DNA of 64,000 nucleotides from Planctomycetota bacterium (GTDB lineage: Bacteria > Planctomycetota > Phycisphaerae > Sedimentisphaerales > Anaerobacaceae): assembly GCA_019456145.1 (NCBI GenBank), contig VRUL01000008.1, forward strand, positions 60,438 to 124,437, given 5' to 3'. Shown in pieces: positions 15,217 to 49,900 of this stretch; the first letter of the stretch is position 1; every line of letters begins with the position of its first letter. A program made the translations under genes and the position numbers. The notes under the pieces were generated by a model. That model did not search any database. It was not told the origin of the DNA and was given only the letters and a program-made list of their open reading frames with translations.

Positions 15217-16608
15217 TCAGTATTCCCTATCTTTAACTATACCCGGCTGAGGAACTGGATATCTGCCGTCGGCGTCGGGCTGCAGGGGCGCAGGAGAATC
15301 CATCGTAAACTTGTCCAGTCCGGGCGCCATCTCGTGGTCGCTGTTGAGGATCTGGTCGTATGTGGTTTCCTGGCCGGTATGCGCGGCCATGCGGCCAAGG
15401 CTCGTGACCAGACTGGTATTGACACCGTTTTCGGTTTCGTTGTAGGGCTTGTCGCTGCGGATGGCTTCCATCAGGTCGTTCCATTCGTTTTGATATGGAT
15501 TCCTTTCTTCCGGCCTGATATTGGATTGCCATATCATGTTCGACTTGTCCATTTTCTGGCCCCTGTAAGTGCTGGAGGGTCTTCCACAGTCACCGTTCTT
15601 TGAGACGATCGCTATGCCTTTAGTGCCATGCGCGTAGCTGGAGTAGATGTTTGTGCAACCCGAGATGCAGCGTCCATCCATGAAGAACTTGCTGCCGTCG
15701 GCATACGTGTATTCCACCGAGTACGTATCGAAATTCTGGTCCACGTAAGTGATGCCTTCGGGACTCTTGCGATAATGGCGACCGCCCACGGCCTGGGCCT
15801 TGATCGGCCAGGCGTTCTTCATCCAGCATAGATGATCGATGATGTGGATGTTAAAGTCGCTGAAGTTACCGCCGCTTGCCCAGATGAAACTGTGGAACCG
15901 CTGTATTTGGTAAAGCAGGTCGCTGATACCGGGTGGTTTGGGCAGCGAGCGGAAGAATGCGGCCGGTCCATGCATCCGGTAGCCGCGCTGTAAAATGATG
16001 TCGCCGATTTCGCCGTCCTGGATGCGTTTTTGCAGTTCCTGGAGCGCCCGGCTGTGGCGCGACATCAATCCAACTCCTACTTTGAGGTTCTTCGCTGTTG
16101 CCTCTTTGCCGAGCTTGAACATCCGCCGACTCGTCGGGCCGTCCACGGTGACAGGCTTTTCCATAAAAACATTGAGGCGTTTCTTGACTGCGTAGGTGAA
16201 ATGCACCCAGCGGAATGCCGGAGGCGTTGCAAAAATCGCGACATCGCCCGGGCCCAGGCAATCCATCGCCTTTTTGTAAGCGTCGAAACCCACGAACCGG
16301 TGATCCTCTGTCACATCAACCTTGTCGGCGTGCCTCCTCTTTAGATTACTGTAACTGCTTTTAAGGCGATTTTCGAAGACGTCTCCCATGGCCACGAGTT
16401 TCATTGGCCCATTCTTGACAGACAGGGCGTTATCGGCTGCGCCGGTGCCCCGGCCGCCACAACCTACCAGGGCCACCTTGATAGTGTTGCTTTCGGCGGC
16501 GTACATACGTGGAACGGCCGCCGCCATAAAAGCCGATGTGGCGGCGATTCGACCGGTGTTTTTCAGGAACTCACGGCGTGACGTGCTTTTTTTAGTAATG
16601 TCGCTCAT
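15217..16608 (-). CDS. Gfo/Idh/MocA-family oxidoreductase with twin-arginine signal
   Basis: Has a Tat motif (SRREFLKNTGRIAATSAFMAAA) followed by a Rossmann segment (VALVGCGGRGTGAA). 463 aa. This architecture is common in Planctomycetes. Confidence 0.85.
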   Translation of the reverse strand: MSDITKKSTSRREFLKNTGRIAATSAFMAAAVPRMYAAESNTIKVALVGCGGRGTGAADNALSVKNGPMKLVAMGDVFENRLKSSYSNLKRRHADKVDVTEDHRFVGFDAYKKAMDCLGPGDVAIFATPPAFRWVHFTYAVKKRLNVFMEKPVTVDGPTSRRMFKLGKEATAKNLKVGVGLMSRHSRALQELQKRIQDGEIGDIILQRGYRMHGPAAFFRSLPKPPGISDLLYQIQRFHSFIWASGGNFSDFNIHIIDHLCWMKNAWPIKAQAVGGRHYRKSPEGITYVDQNFDTYSVEYTYADGSKFFMDGRCISGCTNIYSSYAHGTKGIAIVSKNGDCGRPSSTYRGQKMDKSNMIWQSNIRPEERNPYQNEWNDLMEAIRSDKPYNETENGVNTSLVTSLGRMAAHTGQETTYDQILNSDHEMAPGLDKFTMDSPAPLQPDADGRYPVPQPGIVKDREY

Positions 16609-16859
16609 AAAGGTTTTCCTCCTAACTGAATGGTTTCAACTTCACATACACATTTGCTCCGGGAATTGTCATTTCCCTTCGGCCTAAACGTCGTATAGGC
16701 CACATTAGGCATTATCATAGCCATTTCGCTGCATTTTACAAGTGTGTTTTCCCTGTCGTAGTATGAAAGTGTATCCGCCGATTCTTGGAATTTGTCCGGA
16801 CCTGTTGAAGTATTGGCGCTGCAGATTGCGCAGTTTAACATGGTTGAATGCTGAAATTG

Positions 16860-17376
16860 GCTTAAATTGGGTTCGTTTGGGTTCGTTTTGGGTTCGTTTT
16901 TCCCACGTTGACCAAGTGTCCTTTTTACATAATCGGCTGTTATAAAAGTATTTACGTTCATTTGACTTTTTCGGAAATTGGGTTCGTTTTGCATATATTC
17001 GTCGCTTGTCGCTCGTCTCTCGTCGCTCGTATTTAATCGTTAGTCGATAGTATTTAGTATATAGCCGGTTGAGGCCGGGACGACCGGCATTATTTTTTGG
17101 CAAACAGGGCTGGATAGGCGGTTTGCGTAGATTGTAATTGGTAGTTCATTGTTCATAGTTATTTAGTTGGTAGTTTGTAGTTCGTAGTTGGTAGTTATTC
17201 ACCTTTAGTTAATGAATAAATTTGATTTGGGCCTGCTGGCTCTATGTCCTTGCCACGCGGTGGCTTACGACATGCAAACTGAAATGTCATCTATCGCCTA
17301 CTGGCGGTTTACGTTTGCCTGCTGGCAAACATACAGGTATTTTAACAGATTTCCAAACAAAAGACAACAAAAAAAC
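16860..17376. repeat. Composite intergenic repeat, left copy (inverted partner at 49372-49900)
   Basis: Three collinear blocks match the reverse complement of the right copy: 16864-16995 vs 49762-49892, 17108-17160 vs 49682-49734, and 17295-17376 vs 49372-49455. The core 17295-17335 matches 49415-49455 at 39/41 nt. It contains the tandem units gggttcgttt(t) x3 at 16869-16901. Confidence 0.85.
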
Positions 17377-17506
17377 GGCCCAAAATTAAATTTTTTTTTG
17401 GCCGCCCTGAGCGCAGTCGAACGGGTCTATCACAACAAAAAAATGGCTTTATAAGCACATAAATAACGCCGTCTTACAGGCGGCGGAAGACAGAAATTGT
17501 TTTTGA

Positions 17507-17965
17507 AGGCAAGGGCGGGGCACAAAAAAGACTCCTGTTGTGGCCTTAGTGCAGAGAAACGGAATAGTCAAAAGCCAGAAAATGGATAGATTAACAGGAA
17601 AAAACCTTAAAGAGTTTATACATGATAATGTCGATAATACTTATGAGATTATGACGGATGATTTCAAGGCTTATAGGACACTAAGAAAAGATTTTAACCA
17701 TAAATTTGTGAATAATAGTATAGGCAGATATGTCAAAGGGAAAGTACATACAAATACTCTTGAGGGCTATTTTAGCCTATTAAAACGGGGTATCACGGGA
17801 ATTTTTCACCACGTTAGTAAAAAACATTTACATAGATATTTAAATGAGTTCGATTTTAGGTATAATATAAGAAAGAGGAATGACGGAGCATTAGCCTGTA
17901 TGTTATTGAACGGAATCGAGGGCAAGAGGTTGCTGTACCGGGACTCACGCAAGGTAGGTGCTTAG
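17507..17965 (+). pseudogene. IS1595-family (ISXO2-like DDE) transposase remnant, 5'-truncated
   Basis: The open frame from 17507 reads RQGRGGTKKTPVVALVQRNG...IMTDDFKAYRTL...NTLEGYFSLLKRGITGIFHHVSKKHLHRYLNEFDFRYN. This corresponds to the C-terminal ~150 aa of IS1595-type transposases. The N-terminal zinc-ribbon and the first part of the DDE domain are missing, and there is a stop at 17504. Confidence 0.75.
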
Positions 17966-17967
17966 AA

Positions 17968-18708
17968 ATGGCAAAGCATAAAAATATCATTAAACTTGAA
18001 ATTGATGGTCCAAGAATTACGGCTGACAAATTTACTCATAGCGTAAAAACTTTTTTTGATTTGATTAACGATGTTGCTACGGACGTTACAGGCAAGCGGA
18101 AAGCCGTTGAATGGATAGTTTCGGTAGAAAAAGGAAGTATTGGATTGTGTGCCACTGCTGAACCAATTGATATTCCTGCAAAAGATGTTACTGATATAGT
18201 GCAGGCAATAGAAAAAGGGATTCAGGCCATTAGCAAAAGACGAAAAAAACGACCAGACCATTTTTCTGATAATGCCTTAAAAAAGCTGTTTATATTAGGG
18301 AATATAACAGGCCTTGGTGACCAAGGGGTAGAACATATACGCATTCAAACTAATGGAGAACCCAATGAACTTTCGCCTTCAAGCGTAGCTTATGTTGATG
18401 ATTTATTACAAACTCCAACGAGAGCTTATGGAACTATTGATGGCTACTTATTAGCTTTAGAATTGAGAGGCCGCCTGAATTTTGAGATAGACGAAATTCT
18501 TAGCCGCAAAAGGATTAAATGTTTCTTTGCGGATAAAATATATAATGATGTAATTAAGGCTCTTAGGCAACGTGTTTCTGCTTATGGATTAATTAGTTAT
18601 AAAAAGGGTGGTGAGCCTAAGAATATCGATATTGAAAAACTAACGATTTTTCCCAATGATGATAAATTGCCAAAATTTAGGGATATAATAGGCTTACTTG
18701 CGAATTGA
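17968..18708 (+). CDS. Hypothetical 246-aa protein, upstream partner of the PIN gene
   Basis: ATG at 17968 lies 2 nt after the transposase-remnant stop and is preceded by AAGGTAGG. The region is AT-rich (about 32-33% GC in sampled lines). I see no recognisable HTH/RHH/AbrB motif. Has a basic linker, SKRRKKRPDHF. Confidence 0.7.
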   Translation: MAKHKNIIKLEIDGPRITADKFTHSVKTFFDLINDVATDVTGKRKAVEWIVSVEKGSIGLCATAEPIDIPAKDVTDIVQAIEKGIQAISKRRKKRPDHFSDNALKKLFILGNITGLGDQGVEHIRIQTNGEPNELSPSSVAYVDDLLQTPTRAYGTIDGYLLALELRGRLNFEIDEILSRKRIKCFFADKIYNDVIKALRQRVSAYGLISYKKGGEPKNIDIEKLTIFPNDDKLPKFRDIIGLLAN

Positions 18709-18710
18709 TT

Positions 18711-19208
18711 ATGGCCAGAGAAATAGTTTATTGGGATGCTAATTGCTTTTTGGGCCTGTTAAACAATGAACAGGACAAAATTAAATCGTGCGCTGGTGCA
18801 ATGAAAAAAGCCGAAGACGGCAAACTTGTTATAGTTACTTCTGCATTAACGTTTATCGAAGTAATAAGAATGAAGGGAAGGCCCAAGCTTAAAAAAAGCG
18901 TCGAACAAACCATCCAAGATTTCTTTTCTAATTCTTTTATCTATATTCATAATGTTGATAGAGAAGTGGGGATAAAGGCAAGAAATTTAATGTGGAAACA
19001 TAAATCGCTACAGCCTAAAGATTCTATTCACGTTGCAACTGCTCTTTTGCGCAACACACCTAAATTGCATACCTTTGATAAGGATTTATTAAAACTGAAA
19101 GATGCAAATATTACCAATAAACTTAAAATTTGTAAACCAGACATTGAGTATCAAATGGGATTTGATGATCTAAATGGGCAAGAAAAAGAACAAACAGATA
19201 AACCCTGA
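18711..19208 (+). CDS. PIN-domain (VapC-like) putative ribonuclease
   Basis: ATG at 18711 lies 2 nt after the upstream stop (TGA 18706-18708). The conserved acidic positions expected of a PIN fold are present: YWDAN, TFIEV, PKDSIHVATA, TFDKD. About 165 aa. Confidence 0.8.
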   Translation: MAREIVYWDANCFLGLLNNEQDKIKSCAGAMKKAEDGKLVIVTSALTFIEVIRMKGRPKLKKSVEQTIQDFFSNSFIYIHNVDREVGIKARNLMWKHKSLQPKDSIHVATALLRNTPKLHTFDKDLLKLKDANITNKLKICKPDIEYQMGFDDLNGQEKEQTDKP

Positions 19209-19470
19209 CGATGTTCTCAGGGCCATGCTCTCTACTCCCCCCCTCAAAAAGCGGAAAACTAAGAAAAAGCCTAAAAAGAAGTAAAAAACACTTGTGAGTT
19301 TGCCAAGTATACAATCACCAATCAAAATGTAAAGTGCAAAGCTACAAATCAAAAATAAAAAAGAGGTTTCAAGTGATTAATCCGCTAAAGGAACTCAAGG
19401 AACAGAAAAAAATGTACCACCTGAGGGTGCAGGCGGACACCTTTAATTCCCCCCTTGCAAATTATTGAGC

Positions 19471-21000
19471 ATGAATTTACAATTATGGATTATGGGAAAG
19501 AAACGTGCATCTGGTTCAAAGAAAGTCCAACTGGTTGGAAAACCGTCGGCTCTGGTGGATACGAGGGTCATTTATTGCGGCGATAATCTCGACCAGTTGA
19601 AAAAATTTCCCGATGGGTGCGTTGACCTTATTTATATTGACCCGCCTTTTAATTCCAACCGCAACTATGAGGTTTTCTGGGGTGAGACAAAAGAAAAACG
19701 CGCCTTCAAAGACCGGCATGCATCAACACAGGCCTATATCGAATTTATGCGGCCGCGATGTGTCGAGCTACACCGCGTTCTAAAGAAAACCGGCTCGTTC
19801 TATTACCATTGCGACTGGCACGCATCACACTACGTAAAAATAATGCTCGACCAAATCTTCAGCGAAAACCAGTTTCAGAATGAAATCATTTGGCAGCGCA
19901 CGTCCGCTGGAAAGCCGATCTATAGGAATTTACCGAAGAACGCGGATTCAATTCTGTGGTTTACTAAATCGGATCAGTATCTTTTCACGCCGATAATGCA
20001 ACCTCTAACAGAGGCGGATAAAGCCACGTTCGCTTCTGACGACGGAGACGGCAGGGGGCCGTACAACACTCAGCCTATCATCAATCCTGGCGACCGACCG
20101 AATCTGAAATATACATACACGGATCTAACGGGAAGAGAATGGTCTTCTCCGAAGACAGGATGGAGATTCAGTGAAGAGAGAATGAGGCAGGCTGAATCTG
20201 AAAACCGCCTTGCATTCGGTCAAACGACAATACGCGAGAAGTATTATTTGCGCGAGCGGGAGGCCAAGGGAAAGCAACTTTCTAATATCTGGACAGACAT
20301 ACCGATAGTAAGCGGAGAAGAAAAGCTCGGCTATCCAACACAAAAACCCCTTGCACTTTTAGACCGGATAATCAAAGCAAGTTCGAATGAAAACGATATT
20401 GTTCTCGATGCTTTTTGTGGATGCGGGACGGCGCTGGTTGCGGCTGAGAATCTTGGCAGACAGTGGATAGGTATTGATATGTCACCGACGGCCTGCCGGG
20501 TAATGGCCAAGCGTCTGCGCGATGTCTGCAAGATGAAAGAGGATGAGAAACTCTGGCGGATCGGGCGCGGCTTTATCGTTCGTGACCTGCCGTGGACCGA
20601 AAAGCAGCTTAGAGAAATCCCGCCGTTTGAATTTGAGAACTGGGCGGTTATAGCGCTGGGTGGTATTCCAAATAAGGCGCAGGTAGGCGATATGGGTATC
20701 GATGGTCGTATTTATCCTGTCTCTGCCACACCGAAGAAGCAAGAGGGCGAGCTGGACTTTATGGACCTCTGGTATCCCATCCAGGTCAAGCAGAAAGACA
20801 AAGTCGGCAGGCCGGATATAGATTCCTTTGAGGCCGTGATGATGCGTGAAGACCGCACAAAAGGATTCTTCGTCTCATTCGATTACTCATCCGATGCGAT
20901 AAACGAGATACAGGCCTTTTTCAAAAGGACCGGCAAAAGCATAATCGCCCTGACCGTCAAAGACATTCTCGAAGAACAAATCGCCCACAAATTGGCATAA
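19471..21000 (+). CDS. Beta-class N6-adenine/N4-cytosine DNA methyltransferase fused to a C-terminal Mrr-like PD-(D/E)xK nuclease domain
   Basis: Motif IV (IYIDPPFNSN) comes first and motif I (FCGCGTALVAAENLGRQWIGIDMS) later, which is the beta-class order. The C-terminal ~130 aa reads FENWAVIALGG...GDMGIDGRI...IQVKQKDKVGRPDIDSFEAV...KGFFVSFDYS, the restriction-endonuclease (Mrr_cat) pattern. Start is ATG 19471 or 19492. Confidence 0.85.
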   Translation: MNLQLWIMGKKRASGSKKVQLVGKPSALVDTRVIYCGDNLDQLKKFPDGCVDLIYIDPPFNSNRNYEVFWGETKEKRAFKDRHASTQAYIEFMRPRCVELHRVLKKTGSFYYHCDWHASHYVKIMLDQIFSENQFQNEIIWQRTSAGKPIYRNLPKNADSILWFTKSDQYLFTPIMQPLTEADKATFASDDGDGRGPYNTQPIINPGDRPNLKYTYTDLTGREWSSPKTGWRFSEERMRQAESENRLAFGQTTIREKYYLREREAKGKQLSNIWTDIPIVSGEEKLGYPTQKPLALLDRIIKASSNENDIVLDAFCGCGTALVAAENLGRQWIGIDMSPTACRVMAKRLRDVCKMKEDEKLWRIGRGFIVRDLPWTEKQLREIPPFEFENWAVIALGGIPNKAQVGDMGIDGRIYPVSATPKKQEGELDFMDLWYPIQVKQKDKVGRPDIDSFEAVMMREDRTKGFFVSFDYSSDAINEIQAFFKRTGKSIIALTVKDILEEQIAHKLA

Positions 21001-21004
21001 GCCC

Positions 21005-21087
21005 TATATTAGCAAAATCTCGTATTTCATAAGCATTACAGTATCAGTGAGTTATAGAAAACATGAAATTGGCAAACATTTTCAATG
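21005..21087 (+). repeat. MITE-like ~90-bp dispersed repeat, divergent copy 1
   Basis: Ends in aaattggcaaacattttcaatgg. Alignable with 25279-25372 and 29886-29979 (ataagc..tatcagtgagttat..aaattgg.aaacattttcaatg). Same orientation as the other two copies. Confidence 0.5.
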
Positions 21088-21434
21088 GCCGATGCGCGAG
21101 TTATGTCAAATTAATCAATTCAGCTGAGCCTAAATGGAAAACCGGACTGCGCGAGGGAAAAGATTTTCAGAAATAGAGGCACGATAAGATTTGCAAGAAC
21201 AGAATAATTGTTTGAGTTTGCTAATAGTGTGATTTTAGCAAAAAAACAAAGGTTTTTGTAGCATCGGATTAAATAGACGGAGGGAAAGAAAGGAACCATC
21301 GTGATGTAACTCCCTTTCAGTTTGGGTGCAGTGATGGTGAGAAGGGGTGACATTCTTATCCTGAAAAGCAACCAGATATTTATATGAGAGTTGAAAGCAG
21401 GTTAAGTAATTTTGAAAATAATTAAACAAGGCTC

Positions 21435-21463
21435 TTGACAATAGTGCAGAAACTACCATAATA
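21435..21463 (+). promoter_or_regulatory. Sigma70-like promoter candidate upstream of the BNR gene
   Basis: TTGACA (21435-21440), a 17-nt spacer, then ATAATA (21458-21463), about 180 nt upstream of the 21645 ORF. Sequence pattern only. Confidence 0.3.
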
Positions 21464-21644
21464 GACTTATATCAAAGATTAGAAATATTCTTCTAAGGCA
21501 AATGCAAAAGGATGGCAGGGTGATGAGGATGCTATTCTTGATTTCCTTCACATTCTCTTCCAGCCAGATAAAATTGCTGATTTGCCATATCAAGTGAGGA
21601 TGGGAAATCTCGGCTTAAAGTATTAAACCATACACAAATTATCT

Positions 21645-24600
21645 ATGGAGATCCAAATGATGCGAAACTTTTTGCTTGGGCTGTTCTTGGTTATCCTGTT
21701 TGCCCCTTCGGTGCGGGCAGATGAAGGGGCCGAGAAGAAGGAAAAAACGAAATTCAGCGCCGAAACTTTCAGCGGAATCTCATTGCGAAATATTGGTCCC
21801 GCCCAGCGATCAGGGCGAATCAGTGACATCGTCAAAGATCCAATAAAATCCAGCACCTGGTACGTAGCGGTAGCGTCGGGCAATGTTTGGAAAACAGTCA
21901 ACAACGGCACAATCTGGACGCCGATATTTGACAATTATGGTTCTTACTCTATCGGATGTATCAGCATCGATCCTAAGAATCCCAAGACCTTGTGGCTCGG
22001 GACTGGCGAAAACAACAGTCAGCGAAGCGTCGGCTACGGTGATGGTGTTTACAAAAGCATTGACGGAGGGAAGAGTTGGAAGAATGCAGGTCTTAAACAG
22101 TCAGAACACATTGGCAAGATACTGATTGACCCGAGGGATTCCGATGTGGTTTATGTAGCTGCCCAGGGGCCGCTGTGGGCTAAGGGTGGAGATCGTGGTC
22201 TCTATAAGACAATCGACGGCGGTAAGAACTGGGAACTCATCCTCTCTATTAGCGAAAATACAGGCGTCAGTGATATTGTCTTCGATCCGCGGGATTCGGA
22301 CGTCATCTATGCGACCTCTTATCAGAGGCGTCGCCACGTTTGGACGCTGGTAGCAGGTGGACCGGAGTCAGCTATTTATAAGAGTCTGGATGGAGGAAAA
22401 ACCTGGAAGAAAATCGTTAAGGGTTTACCCACTGTGGACCTCGGACGCATCGGCATCGCCGTTTCCCCTCAGCAACCGGATGTAGTCTATGCAATCGTTG
22501 CCGCTGCCTGGGATGAGAGCGGATTCTTTCGTTCTGACGATAAAGGTGAGAACTGGGTCAGGATGAGCGATTATATTACGATGGATCCCCAGTATTATCA
22601 AGAGATTTTCGCGGATCCCCACCAGTTCGATCGTGTCTATAGCATGGATGTATATATGCAAGTCACGCAGGACGGTGGAAAAACATGGCGGCGGGTGAGG
22701 TCTCGTTTCAAACATGTCGATGACCACGCTTTACTGTTCGATCTTAATGATCCCGATTACCTGATGGTGGGCTGCGATGGAGGTATCTATGAGACTTGGG
22801 ATCGGACAAAGACATGGCGCTATATTACCAACCTGCCTGTAACCCAGTTCTATCGGGTTGGTGTGGATAATGCTCTGCCTTTTTATAACGTCTATGGTGG
22901 AACCCAGGACAATGGATCTACAGGGGGACCTTCACGAACGACCAATATCCATGGTATCCGAAGCAGCGACTGGTTTATCACGGTGGGCGGTGACGGCTAT
23001 CAGACCCGTGTCGATCCCACTGACCCCAACATCGTCTATTCTCAGTTCCAGTATGGCGGATTGGTACGTTACGACAGAAGAAGCGGCGAGCGCATCGATA
23101 TCCAGCCCCAGCCGGGCAAAGACGACCCTCCATTGATCTGGAACTGGGATACTCCCCTTATCATCAGTCCCCATTCGCCGACACGGCTCTACTTCGGTGC
23201 TAACATCCTCTTCCGAAGTGGCGACCGTGGTGACACATGGCAGGCTGTAAGTCCCAATCTCACAAGAGGGATCGACCGAAATAAACTCGAAGTGATGGGT
23301 ACTGTATGGAGTGTGGAATCAGTCTGGAAGAATGTTTGGACATCTTTCTATGGTAATCTGGTCGCGCTCGACGAATCGCGGTTGCAGGAAGGTCTGATAT
23401 ATGTAGGGACGGATGACGGATTGATACAGGTCACGGAGGATGGAGGCCGGAACTGGCGCAGAATTGAATTCTTCTCAGGGATACCCGACCACACTTACGT
23501 GGCGGATCTGAAAACATCCGCTCACGAAACGGATACTGTATATGCGGTTTTCAATAACCACAAACGTGGCGATTTCAAACCCTATGTCATCAAGAGTACG
23601 GATCGCGGCAAGACCTGGTTATCCATCAGTGGAGATTTACCTGACAGACATGTTGTCTGGGCGATTCAGGAAGACCCGGTCAAAAAAGAGCTGTTATTCG
23701 TTGGGACCGAGTTTGGGCTCTTTTTCACAATCGACGGGGGCGAACACTGGATACAGCTAAAAGGTGGGGCTCCCACAATTCCTTTCCGTGATCTGGAGAT
23801 TCAGGAGCGGGAAACCGATCTCGTGTGTGCCACCTTCGGCCGTGGTTTTATGATTCTGGATGACTACTCTCCCTTACGGCATATCTCAGAAGATTTGCTT
23901 GACAGAGATGCTCGTCTTTTCCCTGTCAAAAAGGCCTTGTTGTATATACAAGACGCACCCTTGGGTTCGAGAGAAAAAGCAACCTTAGGTGATTCTTTTT
24001 TCACTGCGCCTAATCCTCCCTTCGGGGCGGTTTTTACATACTATCTGAAGGATGATTTAAAGAGCCGTCGGCAGTCCCGTAAGGAGAAGGAACTCAAGCT
24101 CCAGAAAGAAGCCAAACCGGTCTATTATCCTACTTGGGAATCACTCCGAATCGAAGATGCAGAAGACTCTCCTGCAATTTTTCTAACTGTCAAAGACCAG
24201 GAAGGTAATGTTGTGCGCCGCCTTGTAGGCCCGGTTAGTAAAGGATTCCATCGGGTGGAATGGGATTTACGATACGCTCGCCCGGTTCCCACATCTATTG
24301 ACCGAGCAAGAGAGAGTTGGCGAGAGTCTTCGAGTGGGATGCCGGCACTTCCAGGGACTTATACAGTTCAACTCTCCCGATATGTTGACGGGGAATTTGA
24401 AATTCTCAGCGAACCGCAAGAATTCAAGACTGTTTCTCTAGGTCTTCAGACGTTTCCGGCACATGACATGGAGACGCAGTTCCAATTCCAAAAGCAGGTA
24501 AGTAATCTCCTGCGGGCCGCCATGGGTTTGGAAAAAGTATTTTACGACACAGAGGACCGTTTGAAGTATATGAAACAGGCGCTGGTTGATACTCCCAAAG

Positions 24601-24938
24601 CGAGTGAGCTGCATATCACGCGAGCTCGGGAGCTCCAACGCAAACTTCAAGATGTAGCCATAGTACTACTGGGTGACAAGAGTGTTTCGAGCCGTTTCGA
24701 GCCGACTCAGCCATCGCTCCTTAATAGGATTAACAGAGCCAGCAGGGGTTTCTGGTCGACTACTGGGGCAACAGCGACACACAAGCGTGAATACCAGATC
24801 GCTCTGGAGTTGTTTACAGACCTTCGCAACAAGATGGATGACATGCTCGAAAACGATCTGAATCAACTCGAGGAGGAGATGGAGAGAATTGGTGCTCCCT
24901 GGACGCCGGGGCGGAGAATTCCGGAATTGAAAAAATAA
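21645..24938 (+). CDS. Secreted BNR/Asp-box repeat protein (sortilin/VPS10-like tandem beta-propeller)
   Basis: Has a signal peptide (MMRNFLLGLFLVILFAPSVRA). At least 9 Asp-box motifs (SxDxGxxW): SIDGGKSW, TIDGGKNW, SLDGGKTW, SDDKGENW, TQDGGKTW, SGDRGDTW, TEDGGRNW, STDRGKTW, TIDGGEHW. 1097 aa. Confidence 0.85.
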   Translation: MEIQMMRNFLLGLFLVILFAPSVRADEGAEKKEKTKFSAETFSGISLRNIGPAQRSGRISDIVKDPIKSSTWYVAVASGNVWKTVNNGTIWTPIFDNYGSYSIGCISIDPKNPKTLWLGTGENNSQRSVGYGDGVYKSIDGGKSWKNAGLKQSEHIGKILIDPRDSDVVYVAAQGPLWAKGGDRGLYKTIDGGKNWELILSISENTGVSDIVFDPRDSDVIYATSYQRRRHVWTLVAGGPESAIYKSLDGGKTWKKIVKGLPTVDLGRIGIAVSPQQPDVVYAIVAAAWDESGFFRSDDKGENWVRMSDYITMDPQYYQEIFADPHQFDRVYSMDVYMQVTQDGGKTWRRVRSRFKHVDDHALLFDLNDPDYLMVGCDGGIYETWDRTKTWRYITNLPVTQFYRVGVDNALPFYNVYGGTQDNGSTGGPSRTTNIHGIRSSDWFITVGGDGYQTRVDPTDPNIVYSQFQYGGLVRYDRRSGERIDIQPQPGKDDPPLIWNWDTPLIISPHSPTRLYFGANILFRSGDRGDTWQAVSPNLTRGIDRNKLEVMGTVWSVESVWKNVWTSFYGNLVALDESRLQEGLIYVGTDDGLIQVTEDGGRNWRRIEFFSGIPDHTYVADLKTSAHETDTVYAVFNNHKRGDFKPYVIKSTDRGKTWLSISGDLPDRHVVWAIQEDPVKKELLFVGTEFGLFFTIDGGEHWIQLKGGAPTIPFRDLEIQERETDLVCATFGRGFMILDDYSPLRHISEDLLDRDARLFPVKKALLYIQDAPLGSREKATLGDSFFTAPNPPFGAVFTYYLKDDLKSRRQSRKEKELKLQKEAKPVYYPTWESLRIEDAEDSPAIFLTVKDQEGNVVRRLVGPVSKGFHRVEWDLRYARPVPTSIDRARESWRESSSGMPALPGTYTVQLSRYVDGEFEILSEPQEFKTVSLGLQTFPAHDMETQFQFQKQVSNLLRAAMGLEKVFYDTEDRLKYMKQALVDTPKASELHITRARELQRKLQDVAIVLLGDKSVSSRFEPTQPSLLNRINRASRGFWSTTGATATHKREYQIALELFTDLRNKMDDMLENDLNQLEEEMERIGAPWTPGRRIPELKK

Positions 24939-49371: not shown

Positions 49372-49900
49372 TTATTTTTTTGTTGACGATTGTTTGATAA
49401 TCTGTTAATCTAATTGTATGTTTACCAGCAGGCAAACGTAAACCGCCAGCAGGCGAAGGTTTTGCGGAGAACCGCACGTCTTAGTATCAGCAGATACACG
49501 CCAAAAATAATCGTCAGTGAATACTCAATAATCAATAGAAAATCGTCAATAATCAATCAAAAGGTGTATTAAATGGATAAAAAACACTTATTTAGCTGGC
49601 TACAAATAAAAGTCCGCCCGAAGGGCCTCCACAGTTTTGCATTTTACATTTTAATCTACGCATTTTCTTTTACGAGCTACGAACTATGAACAGCGAACTA
49701 CCAACCACAAGCTGCCTAAACCGCCTATCCAGCCTAATTTGTCAATCAATTATGACCTTATTATGCAAAACGAACCCAATTTCCCGGATGCCCAAATGAA
49801 CATAACTAAAGTATTAACAAGGGATTATGGAAATAATTCCAATTGGACACTTGGTGAAAACGAACCCAAAACGAACCCAATCAAACCCAATTCTTGTCCG
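49372..49900. repeat. Composite intergenic repeat, right copy (inverted partner of 16860-17376)
   Basis: See the left copy for the block matches. Contains aaacgaaccca-type units at 49767-49779 and, in tandem, at 49857-49890. The pseudo-ORF MQNEPNF...NEPKTNP mirrors the one in the left copy. Confidence 0.85.

Follow-up and report, generated by a model that had tools for sequence, protein, structure and literature searches.

A truncated IS1595-family transporter insertion sequence with a probable toxin-antitoxin or retention module beside a separate methyltransferase-Mrr gene in a Planctomycetota genome

A stretch of 64,000 nucleotides from a Planctomycetota bacterium (assembly GCA_019456145.1, contig VRUL01000008.1, positions 60,438 to 124,437; hereafter called the window) contains, between about 17.4 and 21.6 kb, a truncated transposase gene, an uncharacterised protein of 246 amino acids (X246), a VapC-type PIN-domain nuclease, a lysine-rich open reading frame of small size (micro-ORF) and a DNA methyltransferase fused to an Mrr-like domain (MTase-Mrr). 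This part of the window is probably a patchwork of independent pieces: a decayed transporter insertion sequence (IS) of the IS1595 family, with X246, PIN and the micro-ORF as its cargo and this cargo being a probable toxin-antitoxin (TA) or retention module, and a separate MTase-Mrr gene. The decayed IS is acquired and was inserted beside this unrelated and very common gene in a repeat-rich, variable locus. A preliminary description of the sequence had listed the same genes in the same order, which was confirmed by the listing of open reading frames (ORFs) and by profile scans, and its view of an accessory, variable region with a mobile-element scar, a nuclease pair and an enzyme resembling those of restriction-modification (R-M) holds. 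It had also regarded the unknown protein, PIN and the methylase-nuclease as one system beside an unrelated IS scar, and this has to be abandoned, as X246, PIN and the micro-ORF are conserved cargo of that same IS. The apparent novel three-gene defence island resolves into parts of known kinds, and the transposase remnant, X246, PIN and the micro-ORF are best annotated as one IS1595 transporter-IS unit, with MTase-Mrr as a separate, common R-M-like gene (Table 1).

The segment 17510-19319 is the right-hand (3') 1.8 kb of an ISNwi1-like transporter IS of the IS1595 family. Within it, the ORF of the transposase fragment (17540-17965) matches positions 42-153 of the 153 positions of PF12762 with an E value of 1e-27 and reaches 99 bits against NF033547 (cut-off 75); coverage from position 42 only bears out the 5' truncation that had been proposed. 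The fragment is 69% identical to residues 161-302 of the full-length transposase of locus L002, and nucleotide homology to the closest intact relative, L090, begins at 17510 (86.8% at the nucleotide level), with a stop codon lying upstream of the remnant at 17504-17506. About 150 of approximately 306-324 codons are left, and the remnant is inactive because the Zn-ribbon and the first catalytic Asp are gone. The terminal inverted repeat (IR) at the right end fits the family consensus GGnnATTATATACTTGACAAACCCAA, and a left IR was found nowhere in the window. The tip of the repeat, GGnnATTAT, fits the ISfinder IR consensus of the ISNwi1 subgroup, and the subgroup label is presumed from this fit.

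The right IS junction is fixed to the base, because homology to IS-free DNA starts exactly at 19320, both in G004, a genome of the same genus, and in contig C7 of the own genome. Over 47 nucleotides (19320-19366), the sequence is 100% identical to C7:88427-88473, and 19320-19447 matches G004 with 100% identity over 26 nucleotides and with 90% thereafter. The comparison of borders with relatives that had been put forward was thereby successful on the right side, but no clean empty site was found in the relatives, and synteny with same-genus genomes stops within a dispersed repeat at about 16.8-17.4 kb, which abuts the truncated transposase. The insertion of the IS would have hit a repeat module that lies about 170 bp before the methylase gene, and a later deletion or rearrangement at a dispersed repeat may have removed the left IR together with at least ~150 codons from the 5' end of the transposase gene. 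In the own genome (assembly 94.7% complete), X246 and PIN are each present once and an intact transposase of the relic's type is lacking, and therefore the relic cannot move. A second, very short IS1595 transposase remnant with 48% identity to residues 259-305 was detected at C32:22787-22930 of the same genome; one of the copies of the dispersed repeat lies at a distance of about 1.7 kb.

The composition of the IS relic is foreign to the genome. Compared with a genomic average of 47.3% GC, positions 17507-19319 have 36.0%, which places them in the lowest 0.5% of genomic 2-kb windows, and they are also a tetranucleotide outlier (top 1.3%). The AT-rich island of the preliminary description was recovered as a dip over these positions and over the non-coding segment 21001-21644 (36.2% GC), but it is narrower than claimed, since the methylase gene is ordinary: it has 48.0% GC and not about 42% as estimated, and is unremarkable in GC and tetranucleotides. 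None of the seven genomes of the same genus has X246, and among 40 relatives only 2 have it. The element was therefore acquired, and the lineage comparison that had been set to decide between acquisition and ancestry came out for acquisition. No relative was found in IMG/VR viral contigs or in PLSDB plasmids, and an origin from a phage or a plasmid was rejected on these grounds.

Further evidence comes from a comparison set of 51 distinct X246 loci. Homologues of X246 occur in Planctomycetota, Latescibacterota, Acidobacteriota, Actinomycetota and other phyla, and of the 49 loci whose downstream sequence is long enough, 47 have PIN directly 3' of X246. Among loci with at least 1 kb of upstream sequence, an IS1595 transposase upstream of X246 is full-length in 10 (and frameshifted in one more), partial in 10 and undetectable in 15. 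The full-length relatives encode transposases with both the PF12762 core and the PF12760 Zn-ribbon. Terminal IRs of 26 bp, with the tip and consensus given above, bound the transposase, X246 and PIN together with any further cargo; they were found at both ends in eight relatives, and perfect 8-bp target duplications in five of seven intact relatives (listed in Table 1). Matching IRs and 8-bp target duplications imply that the whole package of 2.4-3.7 kb transposes as one unit; elements of the L004 and L006 types measure 2.45-2.5 kb. X246-PIN is found repeatedly, and in several phyla, as cargo of one IS lineage. A recurrent deletion derivative was seen in four metagenome contigs (L072, L074, L075 and L076), in which transposase residue ~100 comes almost immediately after the left IR; the Zn-ribbon is thereby lost, while X246 and PIN are intact.

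Intact elements consist of a left IR, a DDE transposase, X246, PIN, the Lys-rich micro-ORF, an optional cargo slot and a right IR. The window and all IR-bearing relatives have X246, PIN and the micro-ORF in this place, flanked by the transposase on one side and by the right IR on the other, and this core is kept in every IR-bearing element while the slot behind it varies. The slot, which extends from the micro-ORF to the right IR, is empty in the window, L004 and L006, contains other ORFs in L002 and L090, and an MTase-Mrr gene in L014. In L017 (2329-3356, from an Actinomycetota-binned sequence), it encodes two proteins, the first of 192 aa and the second of 149 aa; the first, judged by eye, looks like an antitoxin of the Panacea (DUF4065) type, and the slot may hold a second TA pair on the same IS. 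Genes in the variable slot are TA-like or R-M-like.

The micro-ORF has the conserved motif (D/E)(D/E)xLxAxL(S/A)TPPxKKxK, also written DDVLRAMLSTPPxKKxK. It was found in all IR-bearing elements examined (the window, L002, L004, L006, L014, L016, L017, L018, L022 and L090) and is missing from nine relic loci without IS IRs and a complete transposase, three of which (L010, L023 and L026) retain short transposase remnants. A programmed frameshift joining PIN to the Lys-rich frame was considered and is unlikely, as the micro-ORF begins with an ATG of its own and, in L016, stands in a different frame with respect to PIN.

The concept of the transporter IS (tIS) within the IS1595 family is that of Siguier, Gagnevin and Chandler (2009, Res Microbiol 160:232), as cited in PMC3129680. 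The lineage has in common with such elements a DDE transposase with the PF12762 core, to which the intact relatives add the PF12760 Zn-ribbon, as well as IRs of about 26 bp tipped by GGnnATTAT, target duplications of 8 bp, passenger genes enclosed by the IRs and a length of 2.4-3.7 kb. The window copy differs by the lack of the left IR and of the 5' third to half of the transposase, and its lineage differs by having a fixed core cargo of X246, PIN and micro-ORF with a variable slot. For this fixed core with a variable slot, no description was found in the literature searched.

Table 1. Features of the region in window coordinates, and target duplications flanking related elements
Feature	Position or locus	Strand	Basis or sequence
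Dispersed-repeat modules: GGGTTCGTTT-rich blocks, 82-nt module, hairpins	16853..17494	.	BLAST against own genome
IS1595-family DDE transposase, 3' remnant	17510..17965	+	PF12762, NF033547, homology to L002 and L090
X246, uncharacterised 246-aa protein	17968..18708	+	ORF; start 2 nt after transposase stop
VapC-type PIN-domain nuclease	18711..19208	+	PF01850, E 5e-14
Lys-rich micro-ORF, 36 codons	19174..19284	+	Overlaps PIN 3' end; conserved fourth gene of element
Right terminal inverted repeat of IS	19294..19319	-	26 bp, reverse complement GGTGATTGTATACTTGGCAAACTCAC, outer tip 19319
Target DNA of IS insertion: repeat modules and upstream region of methylase gene	19320..19491	+	Matches to C7, G004
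Single-chain beta-class DNA MTase with C-terminal Mrr_cat PD-(D/E)xK-like domain	19492..21000	+	PF01555, PF04471
Possible miniature IS-derived remnant	20992..21241	.	Imperfect inverted ends resembling IS IR core
AT-rich upstream region of BNR/sortilin-like gene	21420..21644	+	Common to paralogue; outside any island element
8-bp target duplication	L002		ATAAATTA
8-bp target duplication	L004		GACACGGA
8-bp target duplication	L006		AATCGAAA
8-bp target duplication	L016		AAAGTTTT
8-bp target duplication	L022		TACGTTAA

As to the role of the cargo, X246 itself could not be assigned to a known family and membership of one was rejected: Pfam, NCBIfam, PADLOC and PHROGs gave no match, and profile searches of the PDB gave nothing meaningful. 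The family is large, with at least 2655 clusters at 50% identity (E<=1e-3), lacks a curated model and is nearly always found coupled with a PIN of the VapC type. An AlphaFold (AF2) model reached a pLDDT of 84 for the whole protein and a pLDDT of 88 with a pTM of 0.85 for residues 1-140. The N-terminal half (~1-135) is modelled as a ferredoxin-like alpha/beta domain, for which fold searches returned only generic ferredoxin-like matches (E >= 0.04) and none that was specific, and the C-terminal half (~150-230) is modelled as an OB fold. Foldseek matched the latter to the anticodon-binding domain of LysRS, Stn1/Ten1, SSB, PriB and ExoVII, and 2 of 28 distant members of the family matched PF01336 directly. 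A C-terminal tail, LPxFxDIIG, is strongly conserved.

PIN starts with an ATG two nucleotides after the X246 stop (an alternative TTG start lies at 18705), and its four catalytic acidic residues D9, E50, D104 and D123 are all present and invariant in 27 homologues. NCBI lists some homologues under the name 'type II TA system VapC family toxin'. Proteins of the X246 family also precede PIN homologues of greater distance (36-43% identity), with overlaps of 4 or 8 nucleotides and a family identity supported by hhalign probabilities of 99.7-100%, and these pairs lie in non-IS contexts such as an integrase-bearing island or among housekeeping genes. Ratios of nonsynonymous to synonymous substitution (dN/dS) of 0.05-0.28 for both X246 and PIN indicate purifying selection, which extends to Latescibacterota loci without a detectable transposase (0.17-0.28).

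X246-PIN most likely is an atypical TA module of the VapC type, or a retention module, as judged from sequence and genomic context. This is favoured because of the tight coupling with a partner upstream, the carriage on mobile elements, the patchy distribution, the persistence without transposase and the conserved tail of X246. PIN would act as an RNA-cleaving toxin, and X246, encoded upstream and translationally coupled, might bind nucleic acid via its OB fold and restrain PIN, perhaps through the conserved C-terminal tail. With such a role, the pair would be expected to outlive the transposase. VapBC systems likewise have a downstream PF01850 PIN with four invariant acidic residues and a translationally coupled partner upstream, and are similar in being mobile, patchy and persistent. 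Should X246-PIN turn out to be a TA pair in which the partner has an OB fold, the known antitoxins would be joined by a further kind, and the pair would illustrate how small IS elements ensure that they are kept and spread defence genes as cargo.

Several points weigh against this interpretation and the wider account of the stretch. X246, with 246 amino acids and putative ferredoxin-like and OB folds, is three times as large as a VapB, and no DNA-binding domain of an antitoxin can be recognised in it; ribbon-helix-helix (RHH), AbrB, Phd/YefM and helix-turn-helix (HTH) domains were all missing in Pfam and NCBIfam searches. It is also more conserved than PIN, whereas antitoxins are usually less conserved than toxins, and unlike in VapBC, a third gene, the Lys-rich micro-ORF, accompanies the pair on the IS. 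For the IS, a weak point is that no relative retains both flanks from which the truncation event could be reconstructed, and another is that the ISNwi1 subgroup is presumed from the IR tip. Finally, the element at L014, with its MTase-Mrr gene in the cargo slot, may point to a link, be it functional or evolutionary, of the IS with this type of methylase.

A role of X246-PIN in anti-phage abortive infection, with the OB-fold protein sensing phage nucleic acid or protein and releasing PIN, is possible but unlikely. It would agree with the R-M-like and TA-like genes in the slot of the mobile elements that carry the pair, with the patchy distribution, with the R-M-like gene next to the pair in the window and with the TIR-like proteins around the related methylase of G004. 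However, X246 and PIN gave no match to PADLOC-DB 2.0 (5027 models) at E<=0.1 in a scan of the proteins with its profile hidden Markov models, nor to PHROGs, and no X246-PIN pair was seen in viral contigs. The missing PADLOC matches of X246 and PIN agree with the preliminary description, which did not recognise the combination from named systems. Moreover, abortive infection overlaps with the TA interpretation rather than being its alternative. A broader proposal, that the core of the IS1595 lineage is an undescribed three-component retention or immunity system within an IS, in which the OB-fold protein would sense the state of nucleic acids (single-stranded DNA or RNA arising from element loss, movement or infection) and gate PIN, and that the window also records a step of cargo capture, is regarded as rather doubtful.

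The main rival to the TA interpretation is a role in transposition, by which X246, PIN and the micro-ORF would be no selfish or defence cargo but accessory transposition proteins, namely an OB-fold binder of single-stranded DNA with a flap or 5'-strand nuclease (TnsA-like, as in Tn7), or regulators of transposition. The genes form one operon with the transposase, with gaps of two or overlaps of four nucleotides. The strict retention of the core in every IR-bearing element while the slot behind it varies would suit such a role, as would the distribution of the micro-ORF described above. It is nevertheless disfavoured and considered improbable, because intact X246-PIN pairs are maintained without a transposase, as seen from the selection on the Latescibacterota loci and from the 15 loci without a trace of transposase, and because distant pairs sit in non-IS contexts. 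Most elements of the IS1595 family are not known to need such genes for transposition, which was counted against it as well.

The idea that X246, PIN and MTase-Mrr form one novel defence system, in which modification protects the host and the two nucleases are the effectors beside an unrelated IS scar, has the common orientation of all genes of the region within 3.5 kb and the L014 element (genome G013), where the MTase-Mrr gene directly follows PIN and the micro-ORF inside the same IS, on its side, but it is very improbable and largely refuted by co-occurrence counts: of the 51 loci, only two (the window and L014) have MTase-Mrr next to X246-PIN. The two MTases concerned are just 39-51% identical, and X246-PIN pairs stand alone in many contexts. 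In the window, MTase-Mrr is located outside the IS, beyond the right IR that separates it from PIN, and in G004 and C7 the DNA without the IS runs on unbroken from 19320. The evidence does not support a three-gene defence system, and the placement of the methylase in the same unit as X246-PIN, as previously described, has to be corrected in view of this IR, the rare adjacency and the native-like composition. The closest MTase-Mrr homologue (90% identity) is solitary with no IS nearby, and homologues with 69-77% identity are found at other loci of related genomes. Judged by eye from translations of the neighbours, MTase-Mrr adjoins TIR-like proteins in G004 and an HTH/ImmA-like pair in G006. 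MTase-Mrr is native-like in composition and only an occasional passenger of the IS.

The MTase-Mrr frame is open from a TTG at 19465, and the conserved start is the ATG at 19492. Its methyltransferase domain matches the N6_N4 MTase family PF01555 (E 2e-52) and the PADLOC model MTase_II (E 5e-62), and the Mrr_cat domain matches PF04471 with an E value of 8e-5 and 23.2 bits (cut-off 21). The family has at least 7979 homologues at E<=1e-30. Motif IV (DPPF) is followed by a variable target-recognition domain (TRD) and by motif I (FCGCG); this is the beta order (DPPF, TRD, FxGxG) known from solitary beta-class MTases such as CcrM and M.RsrI, and the best sequence matches in the PDB were CcrM, RsrI and MboIIA. 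The MTase core and the Mrr-like domain are conserved at about 90%, whereas the central target-recognition region is hypervariable; IDPPF, DAFCGCGT and GDMGIDG...PIQVKQ are invariant (the last in 16 sequences). A conserved scaffold with a hypervariable TRD would be the pattern expected of a specificity-diversifying enzyme of the R-M type.

MTase-Mrr probably resembles a fused (type IIC-like) R-M enzyme with a swappable specificity region, and it shares with type IIC/IIG enzymes a nuclease-type domain on the MTase chain and a hypervariable TRD on a conserved scaffold. Characterised type IIG enzymes combine an N-terminal nuclease with a gamma-class MTase, whereas the MTase of the window is of the beta class and its nuclease-like domain is a C-terminal Mrr_cat. 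This domain, a predicted nuclease, could also serve DNA binding alone.

L014 (3961-7632) is the only element with MTase-Mrr inside the IRs, four nucleotides after the micro-ORF. It is not flanked by an 8-bp target duplication (the flanks are TAAATGTA and TTATCTTT), which suggests that it arose by recombination or with a surrogate end rather than by simple insertion. At another locus, L041 (G004:C7, 5048-8913), a full MTase-Mrr is flanked by two fragments, a separate C-terminal one (83% identical to residues 454-511) and an N-terminal one (residues 4-47). The full gene overlaps that of a protein that is TIR-like by eye. The fragments may be debris of recombination or of specificity switching in a defence island beside rplM-rpsI.

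Behind the methylase gene of the window, the preliminary description had noted a repeat similar to a miniature inverted-repeat transposable element. A unit of about 240 bp with imperfect inverted ends indeed exists (20992-21241), but it is single-copy and the evidence is weak. Its 28-nt ends are 71% complementary and separated by 194 nt. The unit matches the core of the right IR of the window at 11 of 13 positions, with an estimated chance of ~0.05-0.1. A degenerate IS-like end lies beyond the gene (21214-21241), but this second end (21213-21236 in a search with a degenerate 12-mer) is no more than suggestive, as the search gave four matches versus 1.28 expected. The unit might be a miniature IS-derived remnant, and the arrangement in L014 together with the IS-like end behind the methylase of the window weakly hint at a route of cargo capture.

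On the left, the region had been described as lying directly inside a repeat. This repeat exists (16853-17375), but it is a modular intergenic repeat dispersed genome-wide and so marks no island border. In the own genome, BLAST gave 112 matches for 16850-17000, 42 for the 181-nt piece 17200-17380 and 34 for the 91-nt query 17285-17375, which amounts to 34-112 copies, and copies are found in same-genus genomes too. An 82-nt module (TCGCCTACTGGCGGTTTACGTTTGCCTGCTGGCAAACATACAGG...) occupies 17294-17375, hairpins follow up to about 17494, and 17434-17494 matches C16 at 95%. The repeat has no match in Rfam, and no structured RNA was found in Rfam at E<=1 within 16500-21700. An inverted partial copy pairs 16853-17375 with 49375-49893 (73% mean column identity, patchy), and the two arms encode no transposase. 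A composite transposon or an invertible 32-kb segment between inverted repeats of 520 bp was rejected, since the modules occur 34-112 times in the genome.

On the right flank, a BNR/sortilin-like gene (21645-24938, 1097 aa) follows. It is absent from the genus, as no homologue was detected in same-genus genomes at E<=1e-100. A 55%-identical paralogue lies 46 kb away on the same contig, and the counterpart of the whole BNR region (21420-24938) is C85:128693-132177 of the own genome. The AT-rich DNA in front of the gene is 83% identical to C85:131957-132177, upstream of the paralogous gene.

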